A stretch of DNA of 64,000 nucleotides from the NCBI GenBank assembly GCA_044222185.1, contig JBGANV010000010.1, forward strand, positions 128,001 through 192,000, given 5' to 3'. This DNA comes from Planctomycetota bacterium. GTDB lineage: Bacteria; Planctomycetota; GCA-002687715; CAIWVZ01. Every line of letters begins with the position of its first letter. Position 1 is the stretch's first letter. Positions 10,864 to 36,559 of the stretch are shown piece after piece. The translations under genes and the position numbers were made by a program. The notes beneath the pieces are model-generated. The model saw nothing but the letters and a program-made list of their open reading frames with translations. It had not been told where the DNA came from and made no database searches.

Positions 10864-11340
10864 GCGTGCCGGCATGTTGCGGGGCGTCGTTCGCGGCGCC
10901 CTCGAGCGCGTCGGATGCAGAGCGCCAGTGCACGGTGTCGGAGGTCATTCCCGGTTCGATACGGGGATCGTGACGTCCACCGCATGCACGTCGAACTGGT
11001 GCGTGATCGAGCCTCCGAGTTTCCAGATCTCCCGGCGCCGGATGCCGCTCGCAGCCTGAGCGTGTAACAGGTGCCCGTGATCCGGTCGCTCGATCCGATC
11101 GCGAGTCTTCCGCGCCTCGAGGATCTGCAGTTGCTGGGGTTTGACCGGCCCGTCCGAGCGTCGAAGTCCGGGAATTCCTCCGACGCACCGGGTTGAGGGA
11201 TGCGCGGCCGCCCGATCCCCAGTTCGATGACGGGGGGAACCCGGGAAGCGCTGCGGAGCCGAACGTCGTGAGACCGTTCCGCGTCGAGGCAAGTCCGTGG
11301 ATCGCTCGTGCGGGGCAGGCGCGCGGCGCCCGCCGCGGCG

Positions 11341-12821: not shown

Positions 12822-12845
12822 GAGTGAGCTCCAGTCGCGCCGCGG

Positions 12846-20917: not shown

Positions 20918-23900
20918 TTATTTCGAATTTCCGCCCTCCGGACCGTCCTTGACCGTGAATCGGAACGACGACGTCGTCCCGGAGATGGCGGGGGCGTACA
21001 TCGCTTCGCCCCGACCCGGCCGGGCCTTGAGCGTCCCGGGGAGTTCGGCCCGCAGGCGGTACTTCAGCGTGTGGGTCCCCTGCTGGAGCCACGTCACGAA
21101 GAAGGCCGTCTTCGCATCGCGGAACTCCACGTTCGAACAGATGCCTGCGCCGTACTGCGGGCCGGATCTGACCTCGAGCGCCTCGAAGCCGGCTGGTTTC
21201 AGGTCCTCGAAGAGCAGGTAGTCGTAGTCGTTCTTGGCGTCGATCTTGAACCAGACCTCGATGACGTCACCCGAGGCTACGGTTGCGCCGTTGGCGAGCG
21301 GCTCGAAGCTCTCCTGCGTCGTGACGACCGTCCGTCCGTTCTCCGACCTCTCGACGGCCTTCGACGTCACTCTCACGTACGCACGTTCGACGAGCAGGTC
21401 CTCGCCAGCGGCGGCGATGTCCGCCTCCTTCGTGAAGAACGTGGCATCGGCCGAGACGTAGATCCGTCCCTTGCCGTGCGTGCGCACGGTCAGCGTGGCA
21501 TCCCCGGTCGACAACTCACCGGCACCGAAGGACAGGGTGTTCTGGAATGTGAGCAGGTTCTCGCGTCCAACGTGAACCGTGTGCGTCCCTCCGCCCTTCA
21601 GCGACACGGTGACGTCGAGGTCGGGCTCGAGCTGCCCCGAGGCACGAGCGTAACGCACGAGCGCTTCCACGGCCTGCGCCGTGTCACGCGTGTTGAGCCA
21701 TTGGCCGCCACGTCGATTCGTCACGAGCCATTTCACGAGCGGCTCCACCAACTCGTGCTTGGGGTCCACGTCGACGAACGCGTTCAGGACGGCGGCGTTC
21801 GTCTCCACGAGGTTGTTCCACCACCACCACCAGTCGCGGCTCTCGGATTGCCAGTGCGCGGTGCCGCCGTCGCGATCGACCTTGGCGAAGTCGGCGAGAT
21901 TCGAGAGCACCAGTCGCGCGTGTTCGGTGTCCTTGGCGGAAGCGAAGGCGCTCGCGAGCAGCGCCTTGCCGTAGGGGGTCAGGTCATCCCGGTTGGTGTA
22001 GATCCGCGCGAGCAGCGCCGCGTCCGCATGCCGCGCCTTCGCGAGCGCGTACGCGATGTAGGTTGCCACCACGAGCTTTTGCTCCTTGGGGGCCTGCGCG
22101 GCGAGGAACGCCACCGCGCGGTCGATCATCCCCGCGGGAACGGGGAGGTCGGCCTCTCCCGCAGCGACGAGCCCGCAAAGGACGTACGCCGTGAGGTAGG
22201 ACGACGACTGGTCTGCGCGCCACCAGCCGAACCCTCCGTCACCGTTCTGCATGGAGGCAAGCCGCGCCAGTCCATCACGCACGGCCGAGTCGAGTGCGGC
22301 TTGAGTGACGATCGGCTTGTGATCCGTGGCGCGGTCACGCATGCCTCGCGTCTGCCGGGCCTTTGCCACTTCGTCGAGCGTCGTCCCCAGCTCACCCAGC
22401 ACCCGCGACACGGCGACGGCAGGCATGAAGCGGCTCATGGTCTGCTCGGTGCAGCCGTAGGGGTAGTCGATCAGGTAGGGGAGGGCGTCGAGGAGCGTCA
22501 GCGCGAGGCTCGGGTTCAGCGTGACGTCGAGCCGCGTCGTCTCCTGATGCCGCTCGGAAGGGATCGTGAAGGTGAGCGCCTGCTCGGCGTCGCCGCTGAG
22601 CACGGCGTTCCGGGGGATGCGCTTGTCGTGGCCCCATTCGATTGCGGTGAACTCCTTCACCATGGCGTCGCTGTCGTTCAGGCCCAGCGCGGTCACGGTG
22701 ATCTTCGTCCGGCCGGGCTTCTGGACGCCGACGAGCCAGTCGATGCGACGCGCCTCGCCGGGCGGGACGTCCGTCGCCTGCTCCAGCGCGGATTGTGTCG
22801 TCAGCACCTGGCCGTCGAGTTCGATCCGAACGCGAGCCGCCTGCCCGACCGCGGTGCGATTGTTCACGAGCGCTGTCACGGTGATCTGATCGCCCTCGAC
22901 GAAGAAGCGAGGTGCGCGGAGGCGGACCAGGAGATCCTTCGTCGTCTTCGTGTCCGCGGTGATCTCGCCGACCCTGGTGTCGGCCGTCCACGCCCAGACC
23001 TTCGCGCGCCAGGTCGTGAGCGACTCGGGGAACGGCACCTTGACGACGGCGCGGCCGGTCTCGTCCGTCGTCACGTCGGCGGTCCAGAGTGCGGAGTCTC
23101 GGAAATCGCTGCGGACCTTGGGCGCCGGCCCCGCCTGGCCGGGCTCGCGGGCGTTCGAGTCGTCTTCGGAAGAGTCCTGATCCTTCAGCTCGCGGTTGAA
23201 ATGGTCCGCCTTCTCCTCCGCGCGCGCCGCGCTCGTGGGGGCGGGCGCCGCGGCCAGGCCGACGGCGGTCGCCTTGTCATCGCCGGCGAACGAGCCCCGG
23301 CCACCGCCTCGGTCGCCCTTTTCGCCCGCTGGGCGCCCATCGCGGAGGCGGCCGCGGATGTGTTCGAACTCGAGTGCGCCGAAACCGACGCCTTCGAGCA
23401 CGCGGGACGCGATCCCCGGCATGTTCGACCACGCCGGCAGCGCGCCGATGACGTCGTACCGGCCCCATGCGACGTTCCTCACGAGCTCTCCGTCGAAGGC
23501 CGAGCGCGCGGACGAGTTACGCGCGACATCATGCCCGCGGCGCGATCCCCAGAAGAACCGGCGGATGTCCGGCGTAGTGTCCGATTGGATCTCGAGGATC
23601 GACGCGTCGAGCACGGTCACTGCTGCGCGCGCCGACACGGGGTTGCCAGCGTCATCCCGAGTCGTGACGACGAGGTCGCCGGATGCCCCCGGCCGATAGT
23701 CGGGCCGATCGAACGTCGCCGTCACGTTCAGGAACTGCTCGACGGGCGGCACGAAGATCTCCACCTCGTCCTCGAAGTACTCGCCCCCACGTACCGAGGC
23801 GACGTGCACGTGGAAGTTCGGGACGTGCGTGCGCTCGATGGGGATTTCGATCACTGCGAGCTTCCCGTCGAGCTTGACGACGTCGCACTTCAGCATTCGG

Positions 23901-26845
23901 CGCCCGCCATCCATCGACAGAAGAAGCGTGCCGTCGGCGAAGTTCGACGTGACGAGAACCAGGGCCTTCTCGCCGACCTTGAACGTCCGGCGATTGGGAA
24001 TCAGCTCCACATTCTTCATGGCGAAGTCACGGGCACCGAAGCCCGGCTTGTGGACCCACAGTCGGCTCTCCCCGGTGACGAGCTGCTCGAAGCGATCGAG
24101 CGCTTCGAAGGCGATCGCGAAGTTTCCGGGCGCGTCGGCCACCCAACGGAAGAAGGCGCGGCCTTCGTCGTCCGTCTTGACGGCCGTCTCGTGGACTACC
24201 GTCCGGGCCTCGTTGAGACCGCCCTTTTCGTCGAGTGATGCGTCGATGCGGTAGACCCGCACCTTGCCCTCCACGGCGACGGGCGTTCCCGCGGGCAGGC
24301 GGCTGTGGATCTCGCACTCGACGTTCTCGCCCGCGAGATAGAAGTTCTGTTTCGGTGTGACGTCGAGAGAAAGCGCGCGCTTCGTCACCAGCAGCGACCC
24401 GGACCCGTCCAGCGTCCGGCGCGACTCGTCGGTGACTTGCGCTTCGATCAGGAAGCGCGATCCGTCGCCGGGGTTCGCGGCTTCCGTCCCCGTTTCGAAT
24501 CCGATCGGCAGCTTGCCGCTTCCATCGAGGACTCCAGATCCCGAAGCCACGAGTTCGCGTCCCGACTGTTCATGTCGGGGGCGGATCCAGGCGTCGGACC
24601 CAAACAGGTAGTCGTATTCACCGCGGCGACCGAACCATGGCCACCACCCCGTGCGGAACACCTTCCACTCGACGCGCCCGCCCGCGACGGCACCACCGAA
24701 GAAGTACTGGGCTTCGACGGTCGCGTTGACGCGCGTCCCGAATCGCACCTGCTCGGTGGGCAGGCCGACCGTCACTTTGAACTCGGGTTTGAGGTACTCC
24801 TCGACCCGGAAATGGCCCTGCGCCACGTACTCGTTGCCGCGTTGGACCTGCACCACGTAGACGCCGAGCGGTGGCTCCTTGCCGAGGACCAACTCCTGCT
24901 TGAACGCGCCGGATTCATCCGTCCGGAGCTCCTGCTCCATCACATGCTGCCCGTTGGGGGCGTGCACGCTGACCTTGAAGCGCGTGTCTGCGATCGCCGT
25001 GTATTCGTTCCCGTGGCGAGTGCGGATGATCGACGCGAACCGGATCGGATCCTCGGGCCGATACACCGGCCGGTCCGTCATGACGTACGCCGTCGTCGTG
25101 TCCGCGGCTTCGTTCTGCCGGTAGGCGTAGTTCCGGTGAGTGAACGCGCAGCGCTCGCCATCGGCGGCGAACACCTCGATCTGGAACGACTCCCCGGGAC
25201 CGACGGAATGTGCGCGCTCGAAGATCCCGCGCTCGTCCGTAGTGCCCTTCGAGTACCGGACCTTCCATCCGCTGCCAAAGAGTCCACGGCTGTAGTACCG
25301 CTCGCGCACCGCCACGTCGGCGCCGCGGAGCGGGGAACCGGTGACCCGGTCGACGACGAACACGATCGTCCGGTCGTTGTCCTGCTTCGTGATGATCCCG
25401 ACGTCGGAAACCTGGACGAGCGTGTTCCACTGAAGCCCCTCGCCGCGCGCCTCGAGCACGTAGCAGCCCGCGGGCAATCCTGCGATCGCAAGGGCGGTCT
25501 CGCGATCGACGTGACGCCCGTCGTCGCGTGTATCCGCAGTCAGCGTGACCGCTGGGGTCGTGGCCTCGAAGCCGGAAGGGAGCCCCTTGATCACTCCTGA
25601 CGTGGTGCCAAGCCAAAGGTCGTCATCCGACAGGAAACCGTCCGAGAGGTAGATCGACGGCAACTTCACGGGTCGGAGCGTGACGGCAATCGCCTTCATG
25701 TTGCGCGAGTGCGCCGTGAGCTCGAACGGCTTTCCGGGGAGCCTTGGCTCGCCGGCTGCAATCGAGAGCCGCGGGAACGTGATCTGCTCGATGGCCGACT
25801 TCGCATCTCCGATCCACGGCGACTTGGGGAAGTCGGCGACGAGCTTGCGGTACGACGCCACCGCATCGACGAGGAGGCCGAGCGTCTCCTGGGCCTTCGC
25901 GAGGCTGACGAGGATCTCGTCGCCGAGCGCGGACGTCGCGCAGCGCGCGAACGCCTCCGATAGGACCTTCACCGGGTTGCGATCCGCGGGGACCGCGACC
26001 GTCGGCTTGTCGCCGCCGAGCGGCGCGACGAGAATTTCATCGGCAGAGCGGACGTCGCGCGCGGTGGACCGCGTGAACATGCGCAGGCACGCGGCGCCTT
26101 TCATGTATCGCGCGAGTGCTTCCCCGTCCTGGTTGGCGACGGCGACCTGGTGACTGATGGCTCCATCGAACGCGCCGACGATGCGATCGTTCCAAGCGGT
26201 TTCGAGTTTCTGATCCTGCTGGACATCGCCGCTGACGTTGAAGGCGAGTCCGTGGTCCCGGAACGCCTCGAGGACGGAACCCAGCTCGAGGTGAGCGCGG
26301 AGGTGCTCGGCCGAGAGCCCCTTGTCCGTGGCATTCGGAGTCGGAGTGGCATTCGCGACCTGCGCGGCGAAGATCGCAGTCGAGGCCTCCAGATCCGTAC
26401 GAGCGAGGGTCATGTCGTCCGTGACCGCCCACACGTAGGTGCCACCCTGGATGTAGGTTCCCCGCGAGCGCTGCCCGTCCTTCTCGTAGAAATAGTGCGG
26501 CATCGTCGCCGCGATCACGCCCCGCTCGAGCCGCGCGCGGGCCTCGGCGAGAGGTGCCGGCCGCTGCTCGACGAATGCCTTCAGGTGCGCGATTGCCTCG
26601 TCGAACTTCGAAAGGCGCGCGAGACAGACCCCGATGCGGACCTCGACCCGGGGGCGTTCCGCGGCGAACTGCGAATCCTTCGCCGCGCTCCGGTAGTTCT
26701 CGAGCGCCTTCTGGTACTCGTGGTCGCTGAAGGCCTTGTCCGCGACCTTCAAAGGATCGTCCCTGCGGTCGAAGTGCTGGTGTGCTGCCGTGAGAAGTCC
26801 GAGAACGGACGCCAGGACGGCGCCGACGACGAGTTTGCCGAGCAT
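20918..26845 (-). CDS. Bacterial alpha-2-macroglobulin with N-terminal TPR-like region and intact thioester motif
   Basis: Signal/TM; TDRPVYRP, FRVEEY.KPEF, VRSDFRDSALW, FPESLTTWR, PRFFVEGD, DYPYGCTEQ, QNGDGGFGWW, EAMYAP. Confidence 0.95.
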   Translation of the reverse strand: MLGKLVVGAVLASVLGLLTAAHQHFDRRDDPLKVADKAFSDHEYQKALENYRSAAKDSQFAAERPRVEVRIGVCLARLSKFDEAIAHLKAFVEQRPAPLAEARARLERGVIAATMPHYFYEKDGQRSRGTYIQGGTYVWAVTDDMTLARTDLEASTAIFAAQVANATPTPNATDKGLSAEHLRAHLELGSVLEAFRDHGLAFNVSGDVQQDQKLETAWNDRIVGAFDGAISHQVAVANQDGEALARYMKGAACLRMFTRSTARDVRSADEILVAPLGGDKPTVAVPADRNPVKVLSEAFARCATSALGDEILVSLAKAQETLGLLVDAVASYRKLVADFPKSPWIGDAKSAIEQITFPRLSIAAGEPRLPGKPFELTAHSRNMKAIAVTLRPVKLPSIYLSDGFLSDDDLWLGTTSGVIKGLPSGFEATTPAVTLTADTRDDGRHVDRETALAIAGLPAGCYVLEARGEGLQWNTLVQVSDVGIITKQDNDRTIVFVVDRVTGSPLRGADVAVRERYYSRGLFGSGWKVRYSKGTTDERGIFERAHSVGPGESFQIEVFAADGERCAFTHRNYAYRQNEAADTTTAYVMTDRPVYRPEDPIRFASIIRTRHGNEYTAIADTRFKVSVHAPNGQHVMEQELRTDESGAFKQELVLGKEPPLGVYVVQVQRGNEYVAQGHFRVEEYLKPEFKVTVGLPTEQVRFGTRVNATVEAQYFFGGAVAGGRVEWKVFRTGWWPWFGRRGEYDYLFGSDAWIRPRHEQSGRELVASGSGVLDGSGKLPIGFETGTEAANPGDGSRFLIEAQVTDESRRTLDGSGSLLVTKRALSLDVTPKQNFYLAGENVECEIHSRLPAGTPVAVEGKVRVYRIDASLDEKGGLNEARTVVHETAVKTDDEGRAFFRWVADAPGNFAIAFEALDRFEQLVTGESRLWVHKPGFGARDFAMKNVELIPNRRTFKVGEKALVLVTSNFADGTLLLSMDGGRRMLKCDVVKLDGKLAVIEIPIERTHVPNFHVHVASVRGGEYFEDEVEIFVPPVEQFLNVTATFDRPDYRPGASGDLVVTTRDDAGNPVSARAAVTVLDASILEIQSDTTPDIRRFFWGSRRGHDVARNSSARSAFDGELVRNVAWGRYDVIGALPAWSNMPGIASRVLEGVGFGALEFEHIRGRLRDGRPAGEKGDRGGGRGSFAGDDKATAVGLAAAPAPTSAARAEEKADHFNRELKDQDSSEDDSNAREPGQAGPAPKVRSDFRDSALWTADVTTDETGRAVVKVPFPESLTTWRAKVWAWTADTRVGEITADTKTTKDLLVRLRAPRFFVEGDQITVTALVNNRTAVGQAARVRIELDGQVLTTQSALEQATDVPPGEARRIDWLVGVQKPGRTKITVTALGLNDSDAMVKEFTAIEWGHDKRIPRNAVLSGDAEQALTFTIPSERHQETTRLDVTLNPSLALTLLDALPYLIDYPYGCTEQTMSRFMPAVAVSRVLGELGTTLDEVAKARQTRGMRDRATDHKPIVTQAALDSAVRDGLARLASMQNGDGGFGWWRADQSSSYLTAYVLCGLVAAGEADLPVPAGMIDRAVAFLAAQAPKEQKLVVATYIAYALAKARHADAALLARIYTNRDDLTPYGKALLASAFASAKDTEHARLVLSNLADFAKVDRDGGTAHWQSESRDWWWWWNNLVETNAAVLNAFVDVDPKHELVEPLVKWLVTNRRGGQWLNTRDTAQAVEALVRYARASGQLEPDLDVTVSLKGGGTHTVHVGRENLLTFQNTLSFGAGELSTGDATLTVRTHGKGRIYVSADATFFTKEADIAAAGEDLLVERAYVRVTSKAVERSENGRTVVTTQESFEPLANGATVASGDVIEVWFKIDAKNDYDYLLFEDLKPAGFEALEVRSGPQYGAGICSNVEFRDAKTAFFVTWLQQGTHTLKYRLRAELPGTLKARPGRGEAMYAPAISGTTSSFRFTVKDGPEGGNSK

Positions 26846-26921
26846 GTTGACTCCGAGGGCGTGTGAGACGACGGGGTTGGACGCCGCCGACGAACCCGGA
26901 GTTCCGCCGGCGGGGCGCCCC

Positions 26922-27362
26922 TCAAGCGAGCGTCTTCAGGAGTGCGTCGGCCTGGCCGGCCGGGTCCTTCGTTTCGACCGCGGACTCGATCTTCCCGTCG
27001 GGTCCGACGACGTAGGTGATGCGTTTGGCGTAGGTTGCCGTCGCGTCATCGCAGGCTTCGTAGGCGAGTCCCACCTTGCGGTCCGGATCGCAAAGAAGCG
27101 GGTAGGCGAAGCTGAACTTCTCCGCGAAGGCCTTGTTCGCGGCGACGCCGTCGAACGAGACACCGAAGATCAGCACGTTCTTCGAGGTGAATTCGGGGGT
27201 TCTGTCACGGAACCCGCAGCCCTGGCGCGTTCAACCCGGGGTGTCGGCCTTGGGGTAGAACCAAAGCACGAATCGCCTGCCCTTCAGGTCGGCGAGGCGG
27301 ACCCGTTTTCCCGTGTGATCCTGAACGTCGAACGCGGGGGCGGTCGTACCCGGTTTCAGCAT
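26922..27362 (-). CDS. bcp: Peroxiredoxin BCP/PrxQ, probable selenoprotein (UGA at codon 44)
   Basis: Manual translation from ATG 27362: MLKPGTTAPAFDVQDHTGKRVRLADLKGRRFVLWFYPKADTPG-TGA-TRQGCGFRD..., continuing in frame into ORF 26922..27176 (GVSFD...FAYPLLCD...RITYVVGPDGKI). Confidence 0.9.
27197..27215 (-). promoter_or_regulatory. Candidate bacterial SECIS hairpin
   Basis: On the minus strand, GGGUUC-CGUGACA-GAACCC begins 15 nt after the UGA (27233-27231), with a G in the second loop position. Confidence 0.65.
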
Positions 27363-27469
27363 GGCGCCATCTCTCCTGTGACGTGTTCCAGCGGTCGATT
27401 GGGGGGCGCTGCTCTACGCCACGAAGCGTGCGCGTCGCAAGCATCCGGCGTCGCGCCCCTGAACTTCAA

Positions 27470-27497
27470 TTGCCGCATCGCCGACGCCTGGTAGAAT
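27470..27497 (+). promoter_or_regulatory. Sigma70-type promoter for the BMC operon
   Basis: TTGCCG-N16-TAGAAT with an extended -10 TG, ~40 nt upstream of the AldDH start. Confidence 0.5.
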
Positions 27498-27538
27498 CCG
27501 GGCCGTTTCCCGAGCCCCAGCCGCCATGCGGCATCTCC

Positions 27539-29161
27539 ATGATGGATCAGGACTTAGCCTCAATCGCCGAGGCTCGCGCGCTGCTTCGGCGCACCCGCCA
27601 GGCATTCAACCAGTACCGGTCGTTCGACCAGGCTCGGGTCGACCGCATCGTCTACGCGGCGGTCGAAGCCGGCTATCGGGCGTCTGAACGCCTCGCGCAG
27701 GTCGCCGTCGAGGAGACGGGCATCGGCCGTGTCGACGGCAAGACGGCGAAGAACCGCTTCGCGACGCGAGGACTCTGGGCCGCGATCCGCGAACTCCGAA
27801 CCTGCGGAATCCTGAACGAGGATTCCGAGCGAGGCGTCACCGAGGTGGCAGACCCGTTCGGGATCGTCGCCGCGATCATCCCCACGACGAACCCCACGTC
27901 GACCGCGATGTTCAAGGCTCTCATCTGCCTGAAGTCGCGTAATGGAATGGTGGCCTCGCCACACCCGCGGTCCGTTCGGTGCGTGAACGAATCCGTTCGC
28001 GTGATTCACGAGGCCGCCGTCGAGGCAGGCGCGCCCCGCGACATCGTCGCGTGCATGACGAACGTCAGTCTCGAGGGAACCCAGGCGCTCATGCGCCACG
28101 AAGAGACCGACCTCATCCTCGCCACGGGTGGCTCGGGGCTCGTACGGGAAGCCTATTCGTCCGGCAAGCCGGCGTTCGGCGTGGGCCCCGGGAACGTGCC
28201 CGTCTACGTGGACCGTTCCGCCGACATCGCCTATTCGGCGCGCTGCTTCGTCGAGAGTCAGACGTTCGACAACGGCACGATCTGTTCTTCCGAGCAGGCG
28301 ATCGTGTGCGACCGGCCCGTGAGCGACCGGCTCCTGGCAGAGCTTCGCGCACGAAAGTGTCACGTCTGCACTCCTGAAGAGGTCAAGCGGCTCGAAGCCA
28401 TCGCGTTGAAGGGCAAGACGATGAACCCCGACATCGTGGGTCTTCACGCGAACAAGGTCGCGGAAAAGGCCGGGTTCACCGTGCCCGGCGACACGACGGT
28501 GCTGATCGCCCCGACGTCCGGCGTCGGCTTCGCCCATCCGCTCTCACACGAGAAGCTCTGCCCCATGCTGGCCTTCTACGTCGTGGATGGTTGGGAGCAG
28601 GGCTGCCACCTCTGCCTGGACATCCTGGGATTCGGCGGATTGGGACACTCGATCGGCCTTCACTGCGAGGACGAGTCGATCATCCGGCGGTTTGCCCTGG
28701 AGAAGCCCGTCAACCGCATCATTCTGAACAGCCCCACGTCGCAGGGCGCCGTCGGGTTCACGACGCGACTGTTCCCGTCCATGACGCTCGGATGCGGGTC
28801 CTTCGGGGGCAACATCACGTCGGACAACATCGGCCCTCAGCACCTCTTGAACATCAAGCGGCTGGCGCGCGTTCGTCCCGAGTATCGCGACGGAACGATG
28901 ACCGCCGAGTTCCCGCACCTGCCTCCGACTGGCGCGGCGGACCCCGTGACGAGTCCCTGGGACCCCGCCGATCGATTGGTCTCGCGGCCGGAGCCCGACC
29001 CCGCCGCGCCTCCCCGGCCGGCCCTCGCGAATCCGGCTCGCCCCTTTTCGCGCGACGTGCTTGCGGGCATCATTTCCGGACATTTGCGGGAGCGGGGGAG
29101 TCAGTTGGAGGGACGGGTCGATGGTCGTGATCCGCCCCGAAAGGGTCACGGCGGATGTTGA
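27539..29161 (+). CDS. CoA-acylating aldehyde dehydrogenase (EutE/PduP/AdhE-N family) with C-terminal encapsulation peptide
   Basis: IIPTTNPTST, LILATGG, GVGPGN, FDNGTICSSEQ (catalytic Cys), EKLCP, TLGCGSFGGN; Pro-rich linker then amphipathic SRDVLAGIISGHLRE. Confidence 0.93.
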   Translation: MMDQDLASIAEARALLRRTRQAFNQYRSFDQARVDRIVYAAVEAGYRASERLAQVAVEETGIGRVDGKTAKNRFATRGLWAAIRELRTCGILNEDSERGVTEVADPFGIVAAIIPTTNPTSTAMFKALICLKSRNGMVASPHPRSVRCVNESVRVIHEAAVEAGAPRDIVACMTNVSLEGTQALMRHEETDLILATGGSGLVREAYSSGKPAFGVGPGNVPVYVDRSADIAYSARCFVESQTFDNGTICSSEQAIVCDRPVSDRLLAELRARKCHVCTPEEVKRLEAIALKGKTMNPDIVGLHANKVAEKAGFTVPGDTTVLIAPTSGVGFAHPLSHEKLCPMLAFYVVDGWEQGCHLCLDILGFGGLGHSIGLHCEDESIIRRFALEKPVNRIILNSPTSQGAVGFTTRLFPSMTLGCGSFGGNITSDNIGPQHLLNIKRLARVRPEYRDGTMTAEFPHLPPTGAADPVTSPWDPADRLVSRPEPDPAAPPRPALANPARPFSRDVLAGIISGHLRERGSQLEGRVDGRDPPRKGHGGC

Positions 29162-29204
29162 TCGTCGTGCAGACCGGAAGGTTCGAACCGAGGACTGAAG
29201 TTCT

Positions 29205-29498
29205 ATGAGCATGATTGCGCTTGGCATGGTCGAGACCCGCGGTCTCGTGGGTGCCGTCGAAGCCGCGGACGCCATGGTGAAGGCCGCCCAGGTCACGCTG
29301 ATCGGCAAGGAGAAGATCGGTGGCGGTTTCGTCACGGTGATGGTTCGCGGCGAGGTCGGAGCCGTGAAGGCGGCGACCGATGCGGGCGCAGCTGCCGCGA
29401 AGCGTGTCGGCGAGCTCGTTTCGGTCCACGTCATTCCCCGTCCGCACGACCAGGTCGAATCGATCCTTCCGTCCGCGCCGGCCCGCGACGAAGGCTGA
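29205..29498 (+). CDS. BMC hexamer shell protein (BMC-H, PduA/EutM/CcmK family)
   Basis: [24 protein letters not shown]...[19 protein letters not shown]...VHVIPRPH. Confidence 0.98.
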
Positions 29499-29542
29499 TG
29501 GGAGCGCAGGCACTCCTGCCCGCGCACCCGAGTCACTGAATC

Positions 29543-30169
29543 ATGGCCGACATCGAACTCCGCACGTTCGTCTTCCTCGACAGCATGCAGCCGCAGTTCG
29601 CGTCGTTCGTAGGCACGACGTCGCGTGGCTATCTGCCGGTCGAATATCAAGCTGCCTTGTTCGTCGAGATCGCCCCCGGCATCGCGATCAACAAGGTGAC
29701 TGACGTCGCACTGAAGAAGAACGACGTGCAGCCCGGCGTCCAGGTCGTCGAGCGGGCCTATGGTCTGCTCGAGGTCCACGCCGACAGTCAAGCCGAGGTC
29801 ATCTCGGCCGGCGAGAACATCCTCCAATCGCTTGGACTCAAGCGCGAGGATCGTTTGAAGCCCAAGGTGATGTCGTCGCAGATCATCACCAACATCGATC
29901 CTTACCAGGCGCAGCTCATCAACCGCATTCGCTTCGGCAACATGATCCTCGGAGGGGACACGCTGTACATCCTCGAGGTTCATCCCGCTGGATACGCGAC
30001 GGTGGCTGCGAACGAAGCCGAGAAGGCTTCACCCATCAGCCTCATCGAGATGCAGATGTTCGGCGCCTACGGCCGCCTGTATCTCGGGGGGACCGAGGCT
30101 GAGATCGAGGAGGCGGCAGCCGCCGTCCTCCACGCCCTCGATTCGATCGACGGGCGTCCCAACAAGTGA
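29543..30169 (+). CDS. BMC tandem-domain permuted trimer (BMC-Tdp, CcmP/CsoS1D-like)
   Basis: LRTFVFLDSMQPQFASF, EIAPGIAIN, QVVERAYGLLEVH, ANEAEKA, GAYGRLYLGG.EAEI; closely recalls the H. ochraceum BMC-T2 type. Confidence 0.93.
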   Translation: MADIELRTFVFLDSMQPQFASFVGTTSRGYLPVEYQAALFVEIAPGIAINKVTDVALKKNDVQPGVQVVERAYGLLEVHADSQAEVISAGENILQSLGLKREDRLKPKVMSSQIITNIDPYQAQLINRIRFGNMILGGDTLYILEVHPAGYATVAANEAEKASPISLIEMQMFGAYGRLYLGGTEAEIEEAAAAVLHALDSIDGRPNK

Positions 30170-30181
30170 AGGGACGAGAAC

Positions 30182-31705
30182 GTGTTTGTCGGAACAGTCA
30201 GATGTGAGATCGAAGTCGGAAAGGCCTCCCAGGCGTTCCGCGGCTTCCGGCTCCTCCTCGTGGAGCCCGAGCACAAGGTCGATTGGGATGGACCCGTGGT
30301 CGCGGTTGATACGGTGCAGGCCAACGTCGGCGACATGGTCGTCGTCGCGCTCGCACCATTCGGCACGGGCCTCAACATCCCCGCGGATCTTCCGGTCGAG
30401 GCCGCGACGGTCGCGATCGTGAAGTCACTGTCGGGTACGCCGGCCGCTGCGCCGGCCCAGCGTCACGGCACGCCTCCGCCCGCGGCGCCCGCCCGTTCGC
30501 CGGACGGACCGCCGCGTCCGGAGCGCGCACCGGACGCGCCCCGGGGTGAGCGCGAGCCCGCGTTGCCGAGCCACATTCGGGACCTGATGGAAACCGCTCG
30601 GCCCGCCGCGCCACGCGATGCGGACGAGGGCGGTGCGCGGTTCGCCGACGAGGGACCGGGTGGTCCCCGTCGTCGCCGCCGCCGTCGCGGAGGTCGTGGG
30701 GGTCGCGGCCACGAGGACGGGTTCGAAGGCGGGCCCGAGTCCGAGGGCCAGGACGACGTGGCGTTCGCCGAGCCCGCCGACGAGCCGCGGAGCGGCGACG
30801 TACGCGAGCCCGTGGATGCACCGCCGGCCGCATTGCCGCCGCGCGACGATCGCGGTCACGGTCGTCGTGACGACCGCAGGCCACGCGATGATCGCGGCCC
30901 TCGCGAAGACCGTCCGATGCGCGACGATCGCGGCCCGCGTGAAGATCGCCCCATGCGTGAGGATCGCCCGGCACGCGACGAACGCCCCATGCGTGACGAA
31001 CGCCCCATGCGTGACGAACGCCCCATGCGTGACGAACGCCCCATGCGTGACGAACGCCCCCCGCGTGACGAACGCCCCCCGCGTGACGAACGCCCCGCGC
31101 GTGAGGAACGCCCCGCGCGTGAGGAACGCCCCGCGCGTGAGGAACGCCCCGCGCGTGAGGAACGCCCCGCGCGTGAGGAGCGCGGCCCGCGCGACGATCG
31201 CCCCATGCGGGACGACCGTCCAGCGCGCGACGACCGTCATCAAAGGGACGATCGCACGCGGGATGAACCCCGTGGTCCGCGCGAGGATCGCCCGCAACGC
31301 GACGAGCGCGGACCTCGAGAAGACCGGGGCCCGCGCGGCGAGGATCGGCCCCGCCGTGACGACGGTCACCGCCATCACGGCGGACAAGATCGCGGCCCCC
31401 ATGGCGAACCCCGTCCGCCCCGCGAGCCTCGCGAGCCGCTGCGCCCCGAGCGTCGCGAGCCGGCGTCGCCGGTGAGCGAGGCGAAGGCCATCGAGGGTTT
31501 CGACGCGCCCGCCGAACGCAAGCCAGCTCGCCAGGAGCCGTCGGGCGATCGTGGTGCGCGCCGGCCTGCGGGCGAGTCTTCCGCCGTGGTGTGGGACGCG
31601 TCGCCCGGTCCCGTCGGCGGCTTCGAGATCGCCGAGGACGTCGCGCTGACGTCGACCTCCGGCATCAAACGCCCCGTGAAGCGTCGCGGAGGCCTGCGTA
31701 AGTGA
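30182..31705 (+). CDS. BMC vertex protein (BMC-P, EutN/CcmL domain, aa ~1-84) fused to a ~420-aa disordered R/D/E/P-rich tail
   Basis: MFVGTV...RLLLVEP...VVAVDTVQANVGDMVVV...PVEAATVAIV aligns with the EutN/CcmL pattern; the frame stays open without stops through the repeat tail; stop overlaps the next BMC-T start (GTGA). Confidence 0.85.
   Translation: MFVGTVRCEIEVGKASQAFRGFRLLLVEPEHKVDWDGPVVAVDTVQANVGDMVVVALAPFGTGLNIPADLPVEAATVAIVKSLSGTPAAAPAQRHGTPPPAAPARSPDGPPRPERAPDAPRGEREPALPSHIRDLMETARPAAPRDADEGGARFADEGPGGPRRRRRRRGGRGGRGHEDGFEGGPESEGQDDVAFAEPADEPRSGDVREPVDAPPAALPPRDDRGHGRRDDRRPRDDRGPREDRPMRDDRGPREDRPMREDRPARDERPMRDERPMRDERPMRDERPMRDERPPRDERPPRDERPAREERPAREERPAREERPAREERPAREERGPRDDRPMRDDRPARDDRHQRDDRTRDEPRGPREDRPQRDERGPREDRGPRGEDRPRRDDGHRHHGGQDRGPHGEPRPPREPREPLRPERREPASPVSEAKAIEGFDAPAERKPARQEPSGDRGARRPAGESSAVVWDASPGPVGGFEIAEDVALTSTSGIKRPVKRRGGLRK
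30866..31255 (+). repeat. In-frame 18-bp tandem repeat (~21-22 units) encoding R(D/E)(D/E)Rxx
   Basis: Units such as cgtgacgaacgccccatg (RDERPM x4), RDERPP x2 and cgtgaggaacgccccgcg (REERPA x4), more degenerate toward the edges. Confidence 0.95.
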
Positions 31706-32304
31706 GATCGGCGACGGGCAGCGGATCGAGCCCACTCGGCGCCGTCGAGTGGGACAGCGTGGCGCGCGGGATCCAATCCGCCGATGCCCTGCTGAAGGCC
31801 GCGCCCGTCACGCCCCTTCTCATGCGACCGATCACGCCTGGGCGCTACCTGGCGCTCTTCACCGGCGAGGTCGAGGCCGTGCGTGCGTCCGTGGCGCGCG
31901 CCCTCGAGACCGGTGGCGAAAGCGTGATCGACCACCTCGTCCTGCCGAATCCGCACTCCGGGTTGTGGCTCGCGCTCGGTGCCCGCGGGCAGGATGGCGC
32001 GTTGTCGGCCGTCGGCGTGATCGAAACGCTCACGGTCTGCTCGCTGATCCTCGCCGCCGACACCGCGGCGAAGACCGGCGAGGTTCGCCTCCATGAAATC
32101 CGCCTCGCCATGGGCCTGGGCGGCAAGGCCTTCGTCGTGCTCACCGGCGAGGTCTCCAACGTCGAGGCGGCCGTTCAGCGCGGGGCCGACCTCGCGCGAG
32201 CGCGAGGATTCCTGTTGAGCTCGGTCGTGATTCCCAATCCGGATCCCACGACCGTCGACTTCCTGTCTCGGCCGCCGTCACCCTTCCGTGACTTCGTGGT
32301 CTGA
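31702..32304 (+). CDS. BMC tandem-domain trimer (BMC-Ts, PduT / H. ochraceum T1-like)
   Basis: LGAVEWDSVARGIQSADALLKAA...GRYLALFTGEVEAV, then ETLTVCSLILAAD.AAK...IRLAMGLGGKAFVVLTGEVSNVEAAV...VIPNP. Confidence 0.92.
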   Translation: MRSATGSGSSPLGAVEWDSVARGIQSADALLKAAPVTPLLMRPITPGRYLALFTGEVEAVRASVARALETGGESVIDHLVLPNPHSGLWLALGARGQDGALSAVGVIETLTVCSLILAADTAAKTGEVRLHEIRLAMGLGGKAFVVLTGEVSNVEAAVQRGADLARARGFLLSSVVIPNPDPTTVDFLSRPPSPFRDFVV

Positions 32305-32338
32305 GCCAAACGAAACCACCATCGCAGAGGGTCAACGC

Positions 32339-32635
32339 ATGCCGCGCGGCTTCGACATCTTCAAGAAACCCGAGACGCCGAAGGAAGTGCCCGAGTCGGC
32401 TCCGAAGGAGACCTACTCCTGGTTCGGGCCGCCCGACACGACGGAACGGTTCCGATTCGCGATCGTTCGCGAGTCAGGCGACCAGGTCTCCCTGCAACCG
32501 GGGATGGTCAAGTTCAAGAAGGGCCTGACCTGCCTCCGCTGGAGCGCGGCCGAGGCCGGCGAGTCCGAGCTCTACATGGTCTTGAAGACGACGCCGACGC
32601 GCATCGACCTCCAGCGCGCGAAGAAGAAGGCCTGA
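32339..32635 (+). CDS. Small hypothetical protein, last gene of the BMC operon
   Basis: 98-aa ORF 34 bp after BMC-T, GAGG upstream, high-GC3 codon usage. Confidence 0.7.
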   Translation: MPRGFDIFKKPETPKEVPESAPKETYSWFGPPDTTERFRFAIVRESGDQVSLQPGMVKFKKGLTCLRWSAAEAGESELYMVLKTTPTRIDLQRAKKKA

Positions 32636-32669
32636 TCGCGCGTGCGGCGCGCCGCCTGCGCGCCGCCGC

Positions 32670-33095
32670 TCAGAGCGCCGCCCGCACCTGGTCGTAGCTC
32701 TTTCCGTCGCGTGCGATCGGCAGATCGCACTGCGCCCAGCCCTTGGCCACGCCGAAGGGGCCGCGCATTCCGTTGAAGCCACCGGCGACGTTCGACAGGT
32801 CCGTGAAACCCTCGGCGGCGAGGATGGTGCACGCCTGCCGGCTCCGTCCGCCGGACGCGCAACCCACGACGAGCTTCTGCGCCTTCGCGAACACTCGCGT
32901 GATGACCGGCACGAAATCCGGATTGGGGGCCATCCGCCCCATGGCGTCGAACTCGGCCAGGGGGACGTTGACGGCTCGCGGTGGGTGTCCCTGGGCGAAT
33001 TCCGCCGAGCTGCGGACATCCAGGTAGATGGCGGTCGGATCGTCGGTGAGCAGCGCGTGCGCCTCCGGCGGCGTCAGGTCCTTCGGTGCTTGCAT
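32670..33095 (-). CDS. Single-domain rhodanese (sulfurtransferase)
   Basis: YLDVRSSAEFAQGHPPRAVNVP, active-site loop GCASGGRS, NVAGGF...W; start estimated at ATG 33095. Confidence 0.9.
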   Translation of the reverse strand: MQAPKDLTPPEAHALLTDDPTAIYLDVRSSAEFAQGHPPRAVNVPLAEFDAMGRMAPNPDFVPVITRVFAKAQKLVVGCASGGRSRQACTILAAEGFTDLSNVAGGFNGMRGPFGVAKGWAQCDLPIARDGKSYDQVRAAL

Positions 33096-33273
33096 GGTCG
33101 CGAATCCTTGGGAGGCCGGATGATACGCGCACGTACCCAGGATCACAGCGCGGCGTTGGCGCGGGCTGCGTCCGGCGGTGCTGCGGTAGAGTCGCTGACT
33201 CCCAAGGATTTGCGACACGGGACGTGGAACTCGGGAACGCACGTGCGGAACCCGCGTCCAAGGAGCCGTCAGA

Positions 33274-33879
33274 GTGTCTTCTTCTGAGCCGAAAACCGAC
33301 TGGCAACTGATCAAACGGGTCGTCGATGACGGTGATCTCACCGCCTTCGACGCACTGGTCGATCGTTACCAGGACCGGATCTTCGGTGTGATCTCGAGGC
33401 TCGTCTCCGACGTGGAGCGAGGGCGGGATCTCACGCAGGAGACATTCCTCAAGGCATTCAGAGGTTTGCGGGGCTTCACGGGAGACGCTGCCTTCTATAC
33501 CTGGCTCTATCGCATCGCTCGGAACGTCGTCACCTCGGCCGGCCGATACGATCGTGCTCGCCCGGTGGTGGCCGTCTCCCTGGATGCGCCCACATCGAGC
33601 GGACGTGAAGACAGCGCCCGGATCGACCCGCCCGCGACCGGAGGCGACCCGGTGGAGAGACTGCTCGAAGACGAACGACGCGCGATGGTCCTGGCGGCCG
33701 TGGCCGAACTCCAGCTCGACTTTCGCGAGGTGCTGGTCCTGCGTGACTTCGAAGACCGCTCATACGAGGAGATCGCCGAGCTGCTCGAGATCCCGGTGGG
33801 GACCGTGCGCTCGAGGCTCCACCGCGCACGCGCCGACCTGAAGGAGCGACTGCGTCCGCTGCTTGCAAACCCACGATGA
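33274..33879 (+). CDS. ECF sigma factor (RpoE/SigW-like)
   Basis: AFDALVDRYQ, DLTQETFLKAF, FYTWLYRIARN, SYEEIAELLEIPVGTVRSRLHRAR. Confidence 0.95.
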   Translation: MSSSEPKTDWQLIKRVVDDGDLTAFDALVDRYQDRIFGVISRLVSDVERGRDLTQETFLKAFRGLRGFTGDAAFYTWLYRIARNVVTSAGRYDRARPVVAVSLDAPTSSGREDSARIDPPATGGDPVERLLEDERRAMVLAAVAELQLDFREVLVLRDFEDRSYEEIAELLEIPVGTVRSRLHRARADLKERLRPLLANPR

Positions 33880-35666
33880 CGTTCATGACACACGACTGCA
33901 CAAGAATTCGCGAGTGCTTGCAAGACGCGCTCGACGACCGCCTCGACCGCGAAGCGCGCGCCGACTTCGAGCGGCACGTCGCACATTGCGTCGGGTGTGC
34001 GAGCGAGTGGGATGGGTTCCGCTCCATGCGTGCCACCATGCGCGCGCTCGGCCTGCCGAAAGCGCCCGCGGGTCTGCGCGAATCGATCGCGTCCGCCGTG
34101 CGAGCGGAGATCTCGGGTGATCTACCGCGACCCCGGCAGTCGGCGAAAGTCCACCGATTCCTTCAGTGGTCGCGTCACTTCGCGGTCGCAGCGTCGGTGA
34201 TCCTCGTCGTCACACTCGGTTGGATCGCCGTCGAGCAGCGTCGGCAGGAGGCGACGGGTCCGGCTGCGACGAGCGAAGGGCTGGCGGTCGCCGAGAAGTC
34301 TGTCGCCCCAATCGACAAGTCGAAAGCAAGGAGCCTCGAGGCCAAGCCAGACGAGGAATTGCGTAAGGCACCCGCGAAACCGAGCGCGCCGGTGGTCGAT
34401 GCCGGACCGGCCGCAACACCGACCGCTCAGCCGAAACGAGGCGAGCCCGAGGGCGAAGCAGTCCTGGTACTCAAGAATCCGAATGGCTCGGGCGTGGAGG
34501 ACCGCCTCGGCGCAAAGGACAAGTCGGCGGCCGGCGACACTTCCTCCGGTGAGTTCAACGCTCCTGCGGCGGAAGGCGCCGCACCGCCGGCCCAGGTCCT
34601 CTCCGGACGCGACCCGTGGAGGGACGTGTCGGGGGGCGATCTTCCGAATCTGGCGGGTCTCCATTTCGACCGAAAAGAAGATGCGTCGGTCGCGATGTTC
34701 CTCACGAGCCTGGACCTGAACGTGCACGAGTTCGCCGTCCAGGTCCCGCTCAACGTTCAGACGACGGTCGACGCGTTCACGGTCGACCTGGACGAAGCGC
34801 TCGACCACCTGAGCGATCACGTCTCCGCCGCCGCGCCCGCGGAGCGCGCGAAGACTCGGGGCTCGACTTCCGGCCCTGGCGGCGAAGTCGTGCGCCGCAG
34901 CCCGGCGGAGCCCCGCAGTGCCCCGGGCGTGGGCGGACCCGAGGGCAAGTCGCCGTCGAAGGGAGACAAAGGCGTCGGCTCTCCGCGTGGCCTCGCACCC
35001 GGCGCTGCAGCGCCGGGTGGTGGCGGCGGCACCGCCAAGTCCAATCCGTCTCCGTCGCGCGGCGGCCGTGCGTCCCCGCAGGCGGGTGGCGCGAGGAACG
35101 AGCCGCAGCCGGACCCCAAGCCTGATGCGGATCGGTCCGTCGTCACGGCTGGCCTGGCTCCGAGCCGCGACGACGGCATGACGCCGGGCCCCGAGATTGC
35201 GCCGGCGTTCTACCTCGTCACGGGCGCTCAGGCGATCGCCAAGGTCGGCCGCCTCCTCGAGCGGAACGGCTTCCGCGCTCGCGAGATCCAACTCCGAACG
35301 ATCGACGGTGGGGCACCGTCTGCCGAGTCGAGAATGAAGAAGTCGAGCGAGGTCGGATTCCAGGTCGTGCGTGCGGCCGATGCGGCGGGGTTGGCGCCCG
35401 GGAAGAAGTACCGCGTGGTCGAGCTCGATCTACAGCGGTCGCAGGTGAATCCGTTCATCGGGGACCTGGAATCCGTTGAAGGGATCCGCCTCGCGCCCGT
35501 GGGACGTCGTGTCGACCCCGCCGCGCCGACGGACCCGGAGCCCACCGACGCTCGCCGCGCTGCTCCGGATGCGGCGCGCCACGCGAAGGCCGACGATCCT
35601 GAACGCACCGCCACTCAGGCGACACCCGCCACGACGACGCTTCGGCTGGTCATTCTCGAGCCCTGA
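33876..35666 (+). CDS. Zinc-binding anti-sigma factor (zf-HC2) with TM helix and long low-complexity extracytoplasmic region
   Basis: C...D..LD......HVAHCVGC (HxxxCxxC), TM FAVAASVILVVTLGWIAV; ATGA overlap with the sigma gene. Confidence 0.88.
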   Translation: MTFMTHDCTRIRECLQDALDDRLDREARADFERHVAHCVGCASEWDGFRSMRATMRALGLPKAPAGLRESIASAVRAEISGDLPRPRQSAKVHRFLQWSRHFAVAASVILVVTLGWIAVEQRRQEATGPAATSEGLAVAEKSVAPIDKSKARSLEAKPDEELRKAPAKPSAPVVDAGPAATPTAQPKRGEPEGEAVLVLKNPNGSGVEDRLGAKDKSAAGDTSSGEFNAPAAEGAAPPAQVLSGRDPWRDVSGGDLPNLAGLHFDRKEDASVAMFLTSLDLNVHEFAVQVPLNVQTTVDAFTVDLDEALDHLSDHVSAAAPAERAKTRGSTSGPGGEVVRRSPAEPRSAPGVGGPEGKSPSKGDKGVGSPRGLAPGAAAPGGGGGTAKSNPSPSRGGRASPQAGGARNEPQPDPKPDADRSVVTAGLAPSRDDGMTPGPEIAPAFYLVTGAQAIAKVGRLLERNGFRAREIQLRTIDGGAPSAESRMKKSSEVGFQVVRAADAAGLAPGKKYRVVELDLQRSQVNPFIGDLESVEGIRLAPVGRRVDPAAPTDPEPTDARRAAPDAARHAKADDPERTATQATPATTTLRLVILEP

Positions 35667-35917
35667 CGGCGCCCTCCGTTGCGTGAAGGGGTTCGGCCCG
35701 CACCCCTCGGGGCTATCATCCGCCCGTGTCTCCGTACCCGTCGAAGGCAGTTCGGCAGAAAAGTTCTCAGGCCGGCGGGGCTCTTTGCCGAAATGAAACG
35801 GTGCATTCGGGAAAAGGGGCCCCCGCCGAGGCGCCGGACCGGTCGCGTGTCGATCGGGAGGCGCACACGGTGACTGGGCCGTGCCACCGTGCCGCCCGTC
35901 AACCGAGGACATAGGCG

Positions 35918-36559
35918 ATGAAACGAAGTCCAGCCGACGAAACCCAAACCCAGACCGAACCGATCCTCGAGACCCGTACGATCACCGAAGAAATCGGTGC
36001 GGACGCGCGTGCTCTCATCCGTCAGCGCCGAGGCGCGGAAGTCCGACGCAAGTACGACTTCTCGGTGATCCGCACTCTTCGCCATCAGAAGGGCCTGACC
36101 ATCGAGAAGTTCGCGAAGGTCTGCGGGTTGTCCTACGCGCCGATCTCGCGCATCGAGACCAACCTGATCAAGCCCAACCTCGACACGCTCGACAAGATCG
36201 CCGAGGGCCTTGGGATCACGACCCACAGCCTGGTCGCGCTTGCCGAGAAGCGAGAGGCCGAGCTTCAGCGCACGGCTGAGCGCAGGGTCGGCGGATTTAC
36301 CTTCCGCACCGTGTCCTACGAGGGCATCGAGATCCAACACGCCTCGGCGAAGAAGGGCACGGCGACGGTCGACACGGAGTTCCAGGGGCAGAACGTCGCC
36401 TCGGTCGTCGTGAAGTCCGGCCTCCTTCAGATCCGCCTGAACGACAAGCAATACAAGCTTGCCGCCGGCGAGTCGCTGCACTTCGAGGGGTCGTGCAACC
36501 ACCGCCTCACCGCGCTCGAGGACGTCGAGCTCATGTTCGTCCTCCACCCGCGCCGGTGA
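35918..36559 (+). CDS. XRE-family HTH regulator with C-terminal cupin domain
   Basis: IRTLRHQKGLTIEKFAKVCGLSYAPISRIETN...PNLDTLDKIA; cupin V.SG.L...L.AGESLHF....H. Confidence 0.9.
   Translation: MKRSPADETQTQTEPILETRTITEEIGADARALIRQRRGAEVRRKYDFSVIRTLRHQKGLTIEKFAKVCGLSYAPISRIETNLIKPNLDTLDKIAEGLGITTHSLVALAEKREAELQRTAERRVGGFTFRTVSYEGIEIQHASAKKGTATVDTEFQGQNVASVVVKSGLLQIRLNDKQYKLAAGESLHFEGSCNHRLTALEDVELMFVLHPRR

Follow-up and report, generated by a model that had tools for sequence, protein, structure and literature searches.

A bacterial microcompartment vertex protein with a long disordered tail in Planctomycetota, a candidate external tether to nucleic acid

Fusion of a disordered region to a pentameric shell protein has been known in archaea. 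In 58 of 66 SPU-type (sugar-phosphate utilisation) operons of the Asgard group Hodarchaeales, the pentamer AMC-P2 carries a Lys/Arg-rich intrinsically disordered region (IDR) of 36-137 amino acids (aa), and these IDRs are reported to co-purify with and bind DNA and RNA (PMC12747264, a 2025 preprint). The preprint states that fusions of this type are not seen in bacteria. Here we describe one from a Planctomycetota bacterium, found in a stretch of 64,000 nucleotides (assembly GCA_044222185.1, contig JBGANV010000010.1, positions 128,001 to 192,000; hereafter the window). The open reading frame (ORF) at 30182-31705 on the plus strand of the window encodes 507 aa, in which a vertex domain of the bacterial microcompartment (BMC) pentamer type, BMC-P, is followed by a tail of 423 aa. 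The tail perhaps serves as a leash on the outside of the organelle, with nucleic acid or the nucleoid as its target, a reading to which we give a little less than an even chance. Our literature search for tailed BMC-P proteins returned only the archaeal preprint and no bacterial description. The catalogue of Sutter et al. 2021 reports extensions of BMC-H proteins of up to 200 residues, and a tailed pentamer goes unmentioned in its accessible part (PMC8217296).

AMC-P2 and the tailed protein are both PF03319 proteins of the pentamer type from SPU-type compartments for deoxyribose phosphate, both carry a disordered region with many basic residues, and both occur in systems with several pentamer paralogues. 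The archaeal IDRs are net positive and short, whereas the tail in the window is net neutral and far longer, and only local patches of it are strongly basic. Compared by description, it also differs in that it has R(D/E)(D/E)Rxx repeats, a Trp-acidic motif that is invariant, and a polybasic end, and the protein stands as a fourth pentamer beside a canonical triplet. Judged from its sequence, the tail appears to be a bacterial, much longer and compositionally different version of the archaeal pentamer-IDR fusion. The second system for comparison is the carboxysome positioning adaptor McdB. Alpha-McdBs are disordered, have a biased composition and end in V(I)WPD, the Trp of which is needed for association with carboxysomes (PMC8359340, PMC11321042). 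Our tail shares with McdB disorder, few hydrophobic residues, a biased and repetitive make-up, charge in a terminal region and an invariant Trp that is flanked by acidic residues. However, McdB, with 51-169 aa, is not fused to a shell protein but stands by itself, and its gene usually lies beside that of McdA; its basic region is N-terminal and its Trp lies within the last few residues, whereas here the basic cluster is C-terminal and the Trp is 36 residues from the end.

The reading frame starts with GTG about 10 nt downstream of AGGGA, and its stop codon overlaps the GTG of the next gene (GTGA). The Pfam family PF03319 (EutN_CcmL) matches aa 1-80 with E 4.2e-7 and 30.8 bits (Pfam cut-off 25), covering profile positions 1-82 of 83; in the profile search of the whole genome the score is 32.1 bits. 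Thus a BMC-P domain does continue in frame into a long tail, as had been claimed in a sequence-only reading of the window, made from the letters before the present analysis. With canonical BMC-P proteins (HO 5v74, CcmL, EutN, CsoS4, where HO is Haliangium ochraceum) the protein shares PF03319, the company of BMC-H and BMC-T genes and modelled self-association, but it has 507 aa instead of about 90-110, 423 of them past the domain, and the domain falls into a small divergent clade. Its divergence is suggested both by the Pfam score and by the PDB, in which the nearest solved relative of the domain is the BMC-P of H. ochraceum (5v74, E 0.02). A PDB search with the full-length protein gave nothing at E <= 0.01, no NCBIfam family was found for it, and the best score of an ESM Atlas look-up was 0.75, under the meaningful level. 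BMC-P proteins usually start with G-x-V-W-A-T-K. The tailed protein does not have this start, and three paralogues at a satellite locus of the same genome do. Four copies of aa 1-90 were modelled as self-associating, with a score of 0.70 against 0.03 for the best control; the runs share at least 94% of contacts and the partner pLDDT (predicted local distance difference test) is at least 86. Of 30 proteins solved as one-chain pairs, 20 attain this mark, as does 1 of 23 single-chain proteins, and the pass may reflect mere likeness to BMC-P pentamers already solved.

The tail (aa 85-507) is built from a small set of residues. Arg (98), Pro (70), Asp (50), Glu (50) and Gly (43) make up 74% of it, Ala adds 41 residues and Trp one; Asp and Glu together amount to 24%, and hydrophobic residues to 8%. 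The fraction of charged residues is 0.48, and the 103 basic and 100 acidic residues result in a net charge per residue of +0.007. All the parts named in the sequence-only reading, namely a Pro-rich linker, an Arg patch, an acidic block, about 22 repeats and a basic end, are seen (Table 1). There are 26 R[DE][DE]R hexads in the tail, 22 of which are contiguous at period 6 (aa 229-360), and Tandem Repeats Finder reports a unit of 18 bp in 15.2 copies with 88% matches at 30936-31209. The Arg patch in the first third of the tail reads R7GGRGGRG, with a charge of +8, and the acidic block comes after it. The expected disorder agrees with AlphaFold2 (12-row alignment), which assigns pLDDT <50 to 404 of the 507 residues, with a mean of 44.9. 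A helix at aa 130-138 is the only element of the tail in this model, and the block means of pLDDT in its region are 57-68. The full-length model also rendered the domain poorly, and it was used solely as a sign of tail disorder. The tail is therefore predicted to be disordered, with no predicted structure besides one helix.

The tailed fusion is real and no artefact, as confirmed by an independent contig across the junction and by orthologues that keep the fusion. In run X2, which belongs to another study, one Logan contig of 828 nt spans 30014-30841 with 3 differences; it extends from the last part of the upstream gene through the BMC-P domain and over the first 220 residues of the protein. 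It thus crosses the boundary between domain and tail, where the sequence-only reading had asked for a check of reads. Positions 30972-31172 are covered by no contig of four runs (X2, X5 and X7 among them), and the copy number of the repeat is taken from the present assembly only. In one further X2 contig, 30404 is joined to 30846, so that 441 bases are missing, and the shorter arm of this joint has only 23 letters; we regard it as an artefact of a repeat or of a foreign organism. At most a weak hint of expression comes from a metatranscriptome contig on the distal tail (run X20, 175 nt, 31238-31412, 0 differences). That a frameshift, a mis-assembly or a wrong frame through GC-rich repeats has produced the tail is extremely improbable. 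Such an origin would fit the GC content at codon position 3, which is 0.73 in the tail versus 0.80-0.86 in the neighbour genes, the repeat region without independent coverage, and the look of other long 'BMC-P' proteins in databases. Among proteins of 192-2000 aa related to the canonical satellite BMC-P, 11 were found at E <= 1e-5; the five that were read are those with PF03319 alone, and they resemble frame-shifted or fused gene calls rather than tailed proteins, whereas the remaining six have a second Pfam domain. However, not only does the contig of the other study cross the junction, but at least 18 orthologues keep an open frame to the same end motif directly before the next gene. The 24% of Asp/Glu is also unusual for a wrong frame in GC-rich DNA, and the odd codon-position profile is explained by the R/D/E/P/G/A composition.

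At E <= 0.001, 22 of 41 related genomes contain an orthologue of the domain. Within the order of this genome (G000), four families of which are called f1 to f4 here, 11 of 23 genomes have one at E <= 1e-10, including 4 of 4 in f1 besides G000 and 6 of 8 in f3; more divergent tailed forms occur in f2 (4 loci) and f4 (1 locus). Where the contig permits, the open frames of the relatives extend for 200-370 residues. A scan of 1.84 billion representatives returned only 20 proteins at E <= 0.001, 14 of them at E <= 1e-10. The complete ones have mostly 203-355 aa, and the tail in the window is the longest seen. A word-indexed search with the f4-type domain, made for long relatives, returned the query alone. 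In the window, the tailed gene lies between two BMC-T genes, BMC-T(dp) and BMC-T(s), downstream of an aldehyde dehydrogenase (AldDh) and a BMC-H gene, and the order AldDh, BMC-H, BMC-T(dp), tailed BMC-P, BMC-T(s) recurs in f1, f2, f3 and f4. The AldDh-to-BMC-T order is also present in two more families of the phylum. The worry that close relatives might all have short BMC-P proteins is thus answered by tailed orthologues in the same gene order in four families.

The repeats are not kept among relatives, which have GNEQRP-type, RGG-type or Lys/Ala/Pro-rich runs instead. One genus of f3 (L014, L015, L019, P0011) has a Lys/Ala/Pro-rich spacer with AAPAK and AKKA-type runs, which resembles histone H1, in place of Arg/Asp/Glu repeats. 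When 12 full-length proteins were aligned, the tail was unalignable except for invariant V470, W471, R501 and R502. The ends were compared in 24 complete sequences. This set leaves out L012, L014 and L016, which are ended by contig ends; P0002, P0004, P0005, P0015 and P0018 as fragments or possible fragments; P0001, P0014 and P0020 as duplicates of L010, L017 and L020; and P0021 as well as P0016, P0017 and P0019 (934-4774 aa, many short stretches). In 18 of the 24, a motif phi-[V/I]-W-[D/E] occurs 19-36 residues from the C-terminus and 6-8 of the last 12 residues are K/R. These 18 have tails of 119-423 aa; nine are from genomes of f1, f3 and f4 and nine from metagenomes. In four others, all from f2, the tail is 91-120 aa long, contains a DLF motif and a patch rich in Lys, and has an acidic end, from which phi-W-[G/K]-[D/E] is 6-10 residues away. 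The last two belong to other families of the phylum, one with a tail of 33 aa that has a Trp and a KGRR end, and one tail-less. A 12-residue window with a net charge of +5 to +9 is present in all 22 tails of at least 90 aa, and these basic patches are either R/G-rich or K-rich. The conserved parts of the tail are its end motifs and not the repeats. The sequence-only reading had missed that the motif around the Trp and the polybasic end are what is conserved. Tethers that display short binding motifs commonly have such an architecture of a variable leash with conserved ends. The combination of W-motif and basic end is found once among 45,997 open frames of at least 80 aa in the genome, and for this uniqueness the idea that it is a general targeting signal was rejected.

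The repeat block is almost perfectly charge-mixed (kappa ~0.003, calculated by our own script) and most hexads have a proline, which points to an expanded spacer and not to a sticky segment that associates with itself. Clustering of shells by phase separation of the repeats, as first proposed, becomes a weaker option on this ground. A related idea is that the five tails of each pentamer are multivalent linkers that glue compartments into clusters, or form an assembly hub that nucleates or cements vertices, by contacts of the Trp-acidic motif with a shell surface in trans or of basic with acidic patches. The Trp motif of McdB binds shells and correlates with condensate formation (PMC11321042), the first third of our tail is blocky in charge, with the Arg patch followed by the acidic block, and the relative with 33 aa keeps the Trp and the basic end with a reach that would be limited to neighbouring hexamers. 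We see only a small chance for this explanation, since self-association is disfavoured by the charge-mixed, proline-rich character of the longest stretch of the tail, and neither the length nor the composition of the spacer is conserved. The same spacer, a charge-mixed, Pro-rich polyampholyte of variable length, would also suit a passive brush, that is, a steric entropic bristle that keeps compartments soluble or apart; alternatively, the protein could be a paralogue that regulates capping, as its position as fourth paralogue beside a full BMC-P triplet may indicate. Roles of this kind are improbable, because they give no reason for the invariant Trp motif and the polybasic end to persist from family to family when the spacer does not.

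The compartment to which the tailed protein would belong is divided between two loci. The four PF00936 matches of the genome all lie in the operon in the window, and the tailed protein is the only BMC-P there, as the sequence-only reading had said; three further, canonical PF03319 genes are all on another contig (C1). There, the satellite locus has, on one strand, genes for a nuclease-domain protein, BMC-P, RpiB, two more BMC-P proteins, deoxyribose-phosphate aldolase (DERA) and a phosphorylase of the PNP/UDP family, and it is syntenic in 5 of 5 relatives examined. The aldolase gene (deoC) scores 274.8 bits with TIGR00126 (cut-off 117.3) and 44 bits with PF01791, and RpiB scores 162.6 bits with PF02502. 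Both enzymes have amphipathic N-terminal helices that read like encapsulation peptides, and so do their counterparts in 4 of 4 relatives each. SPU/HO metabolosomes have the same features, as far as the catalogue describes them: AldDh with a C-terminal peptide, a BMC-P triplet, BMC-T(dp), DERA (pfam01791) with an N-terminal extension like an encapsulation peptide, an RpiB-type pfam02502 protein, and genes divided between a main and a satellite locus (PMC8217296). The organelle is accordingly an SPU/HO-like metabolosome split over two loci. Since its signature enzyme DERA is encoded at the satellite locus, the AldDh shell operon in the window is no orphan, but half of a two-locus deoxyribose-phosphate compartment, in which the tailed protein would be the fourth pentamer. 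The aldolase would make acetaldehyde from deoxyribose-5-phosphate, and AldDh would turn acetaldehyde into acetyl-CoA.

The orientation of the tail is taken from other shells. A C-terminal Strep tag on HO BMC-P permits pull-down of closed shells (PMC10853475), and tagged pentamers work likewise for the beta-carboxysome shell (PMC6056538). The sequence-only reading was therefore right that C-terminal tags on BMC-P are accessible from outside, and because they are reachable on closed HO shells, a C-terminal extension should point outwards, which we regard as a reasonable default by analogy. The opposite arrangement would place the tail inside as a scaffold like CsoS2 or CcmN, organising cargo through the amphipathic helix and the charged repeats. 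Repetitive disordered scaffolds occur in carboxysomes. The helix at aa 129-139 has counterparts in relatives (PEHVRAII in G001/G003, PRHIRSLMEE in P0018) and resembles the encapsulation-peptide-like N-termini of DERA and RpiB. A luminal scaffold is nevertheless quite improbable: besides the accessibility of the tags outside closed shells, the helix is limited to f1 and the conserved parts are the Trp motif and the basic end, and the cargo proteins bear peptides of their own.

If the tail is an external leash, it would stand out from the vertices, as the C-terminus of BMC-P lies on the cytosolic face of those shells that have been solved or engineered. Its working parts would be the basic patch or patches, the Trp-acidic motif and the polybasic C-terminus, carried by a variable, charge-mixed and proline-punctuated spacer. 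The tail would tie the organelle to a polyanion, most likely nucleoid DNA or RNA, and thereby may keep the compartment where its substrate arises, or allow it to be spaced and inherited with no additional adaptor, or both. A second point of attachment, either to the shell surface or to a partner, would be offered by the Trp-acidic motif, as it is in McdB. We infer the outward orientation, the nucleic-acid binding and the purpose of the tail. Nucleic acid is favoured as the partner because of the precedent of archaeal pentamer IDRs, because of the same metabolism and because a basic patch is found in every tail. A tether to RNA or the nucleoid had also been suggested in the sequence-only reading; its plausibility gains from the archaeal IDRs, which co-purify with DNA and RNA (PMC12747264), and suffers from the net neutrality of the tail. 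The suggestion of up to 60 tails per shell holds as an upper bound, but three canonical paralogues compete for the 12 vertices.

Several points weigh against an external leash. The domain is divergent (30.8 bits; PDB E 0.02) and its monomer fold was modelled poorly. With three canonical pentamer genes present, the entry of the tailed protein into the shell is only predicted, and its orientation is borrowed from other shells. The acidic residues of a tail that is neutral overall (+0.007) could mask the basic patches, and the f1 helix, being like an encapsulation peptide, fits a luminal role better. Among relatives, the f2 proteins have an acidic C-terminus with the basic patch upstream, so that the order of the modules is not fixed; the 33-aa tail and the tail-less protein occur in other families of the phylum; and P0004 (85 aa) and P0005 (130 aa, no Trp) may be short forms or fragments. 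Finally, only 3-4 residues are behind the likeness to McdB, which may have arisen by convergence or chance.

This likeness also bears on whether the tail works as a built-in McdB. It would then be a positioning adaptor fused to the shell, of which the polybasic end stimulates a nucleoid ParA-type ATPase encoded elsewhere and the Trp-acidic motif docks on hexamers, with Brownian-ratchet spacing as for carboxysomes. The compositional features described for McdB (PMC8359340) are present, from disorder and low hydrophobicity to the charged terminus and the invariant Trp with acidic neighbours; phi-V/I-W-D resembles V(I)WPD of alpha-McdB, and orphan McdBs without an adjacent McdA exist. ParA/MinD-family proteins are indeed encoded in the genome, where PF01656 and PF13614 match on contigs C1, C7 and C14. 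However, neither family matches on the contig of the window (C10) or near the satellite locus, and no ParA-family gene is found near the main locus in 5 relatives, in agreement with the absence of an McdAB-type system that had been noted at this locus. For the lack of such a gene near the loci, a classical McdAB-type mechanism is ranked as a rival and not as the main reading. In addition, the basic region is C-terminal and not N-terminal, the Trp is 19-36 residues from the end in f1, f3 and f4, a covalently anchored adaptor needs no shell-docking motif, and there are too few residues to show homology. A built-in McdB is thus unlikely. A bolder version, which we consider rather unlikely, is a self-contained organiser of the organelle's exterior. 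It would combine, in one shell subunit, an adaptor like McdB, Arg patches that hold nucleic acid or the nucleoid, a Trp motif that docks back on shell hexamers, and perhaps the ability to recruit a nuclease. The last element refers to the bifunctional-nuclease-domain protein at the satellite locus, for which no NCBIfam family was found. It ends in an acidic run, as do its orthologues (L043-L047, n=5), with 10-34 D/E in the last 45 residues, and this acidic tail could pair electrostatically with basic patches of the tailed pentamer. If the organiser exists, the surface of the SPU-type compartment would be a station that captures and dismantles nucleic acid and feeds deoxyribose phosphate to the lumen, and no dedicated ParA/McdB pair would be needed, since positioning and inheritance would come from this tether as well.

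The positions of all features are collected in Table 1.

Table 1. Features of the tailed pentamer gene, the neighbouring genes in the window and the satellite locus
Feature	Position	Strand	Basis or remark
AldDh, acylating acetaldehyde-dehydrogenase-like, with C-terminal extension	27539..29161	+	PF00171, 76.8 bits
BMC-H, hexamer shell protein	29205..29498	+	PF00936, 100.7 bits
BMC-T(dp), permuted, double-stacking (CcmP/CsoS1D/HO-5816-like)	29543..30169	+	PDB matches
BMC-P (EutN/CcmL) domain, divergent clade, aa 1-84	30182..30433	+	PF03319, 5v74 match, modelled self-association
Pro/Ala-rich linker, aa 85-162	30434..30667	+	Composition; holds short amphipathic helix
Predicted amphipathic helix PSHIRDLMETA, aa 129-139	30566-30598	+	AlphaFold2 helix 130-138; family f1
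Arg-rich RGG-like patch RRRRRRRGGRGGRG, aa 163-176	30668..30709	+	Composition
Acidic block, aa 178-212	30713..30817	+	Composition
R(D/E)(D/E)Rxx hexapeptide repeats, aa 221-394	30842..31363	+	Charge-mixed, Pro-punctuated; 18-bp tandem repeat
Trp-acidic motif AVVWDA, aa 468-473	31583..31600	+	W471 is the sole Trp of the tail
Polybasic C-terminus KRPVKRRGGLRK, aa 496-507, and stop codon	31667..31705	+	Conserved Arg, K/R count
BMC-T(s), PduT-like, single-layer, two PF00936 domains	31702..32304	+	PF00936, 139.1 bits, 2 stretches
Small conserved protein, 98 aa from MPRG, predicted beta-barrel	32339..32635	+	Alignment, AlphaFold2
Rhodanese gene	downstream of shell operon	opposite	
ECF (extracytoplasmic function) sigma factor, zf-HC2 anti-sigma factor, HTH (helix-turn-helix)-cupin regulator	33274-36559	+	After shell operon
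Satellite locus	L035 (G000:C1:1519000-1538900) ~8940-13958	-	Pfam/NCBIfam matches
Deoxyribose-phosphate aldolase and RpiB	L035 9769-10629 and 11197-12048	-	Amphipathic N-terminal helices and linkers
Bifunctional-nuclease-domain protein with acidic C-terminal tail	L035 13392-13958	-	Adjoins pentamer triplet

The best NCBIfam model for AldDh is TIGR02518, with 549.5 bits, below its cut-off of 620.1. Its C-terminal extension holds an amphipathic stretch, SRDVLAGIISGHLRE, that reads like an encapsulation peptide, and its start at MMDQD was picked by eye. BMC-H matches PduA, EutM and HO-5815 in the PDB at E 1e-33 to 1e-41. BMC-T(dp) has a weak Pfam match, as expected with a permuted domain, and matches 5v76 (E 3.7e-76) and HO-5816 (5v74, E 6.9e-73), whereas BMC-T(s) matches 3nwg (E 2.7e-46) and PduT (E 4.7e-30). 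The ORF behind BMC-T(s) has 19 invariant columns in the alignment of its relatives. AlphaFold2 predicts a six-stranded beta-barrel (pLDDT 75.8), for which weak PilZ-like fold matches were obtained (best E 4.8e-3); no Pfam or NCBIfam family was found, the best ESM Atlas score was 0.76, under the meaningful level, and a conserved RxxxR motif was not seen in the alignment. This ORF adjoins BMC-T in the f1 and f3 loci and was not found in those of f2 and f4. As a candidate partner of the tail it was dropped: it goes with tails of the VWD...RRRR type in f1 and f3, but it was found neither in the f4 locus, which has the same type of tail end, nor in the four f2 loci. The ECF sigma factor and the HTH-cupin gene that follow are likely regulators of the organelle, since they recur beside the operon in several families. 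Rfam gave no matches over 26800-33500. Directly upstream of the operon lies the gene for a bacterial alpha-2-macroglobulin of 1975 aa (MG2, A2M, TED, bMG10) at 20918-26845 on the minus strand; the long ORFs on the plus strand across this gene belong to no family, and between it and AldDh there is an ORF of 84 aa at 26922-27176 on the minus strand.

BMC shell proteins are commonly regarded as compact tiles, and the positioning of catabolic compartments and their link to the rest of the cell are largely open. The present locus suggests that bacteria, too, build vertex pentamers with long disordered tails, external by analogy, which had previously been described for archaea only. In these tails, a spacer that evolves fast is combined with two short motifs that are conserved, and one of the two is like the Trp motif by which McdB docks on carboxysomes. 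The tails also provide a natural template for long-linker display on engineered shells. The motifs of the tail offer a testable link among shell architecture, nucleic-acid binding and organelle positioning.

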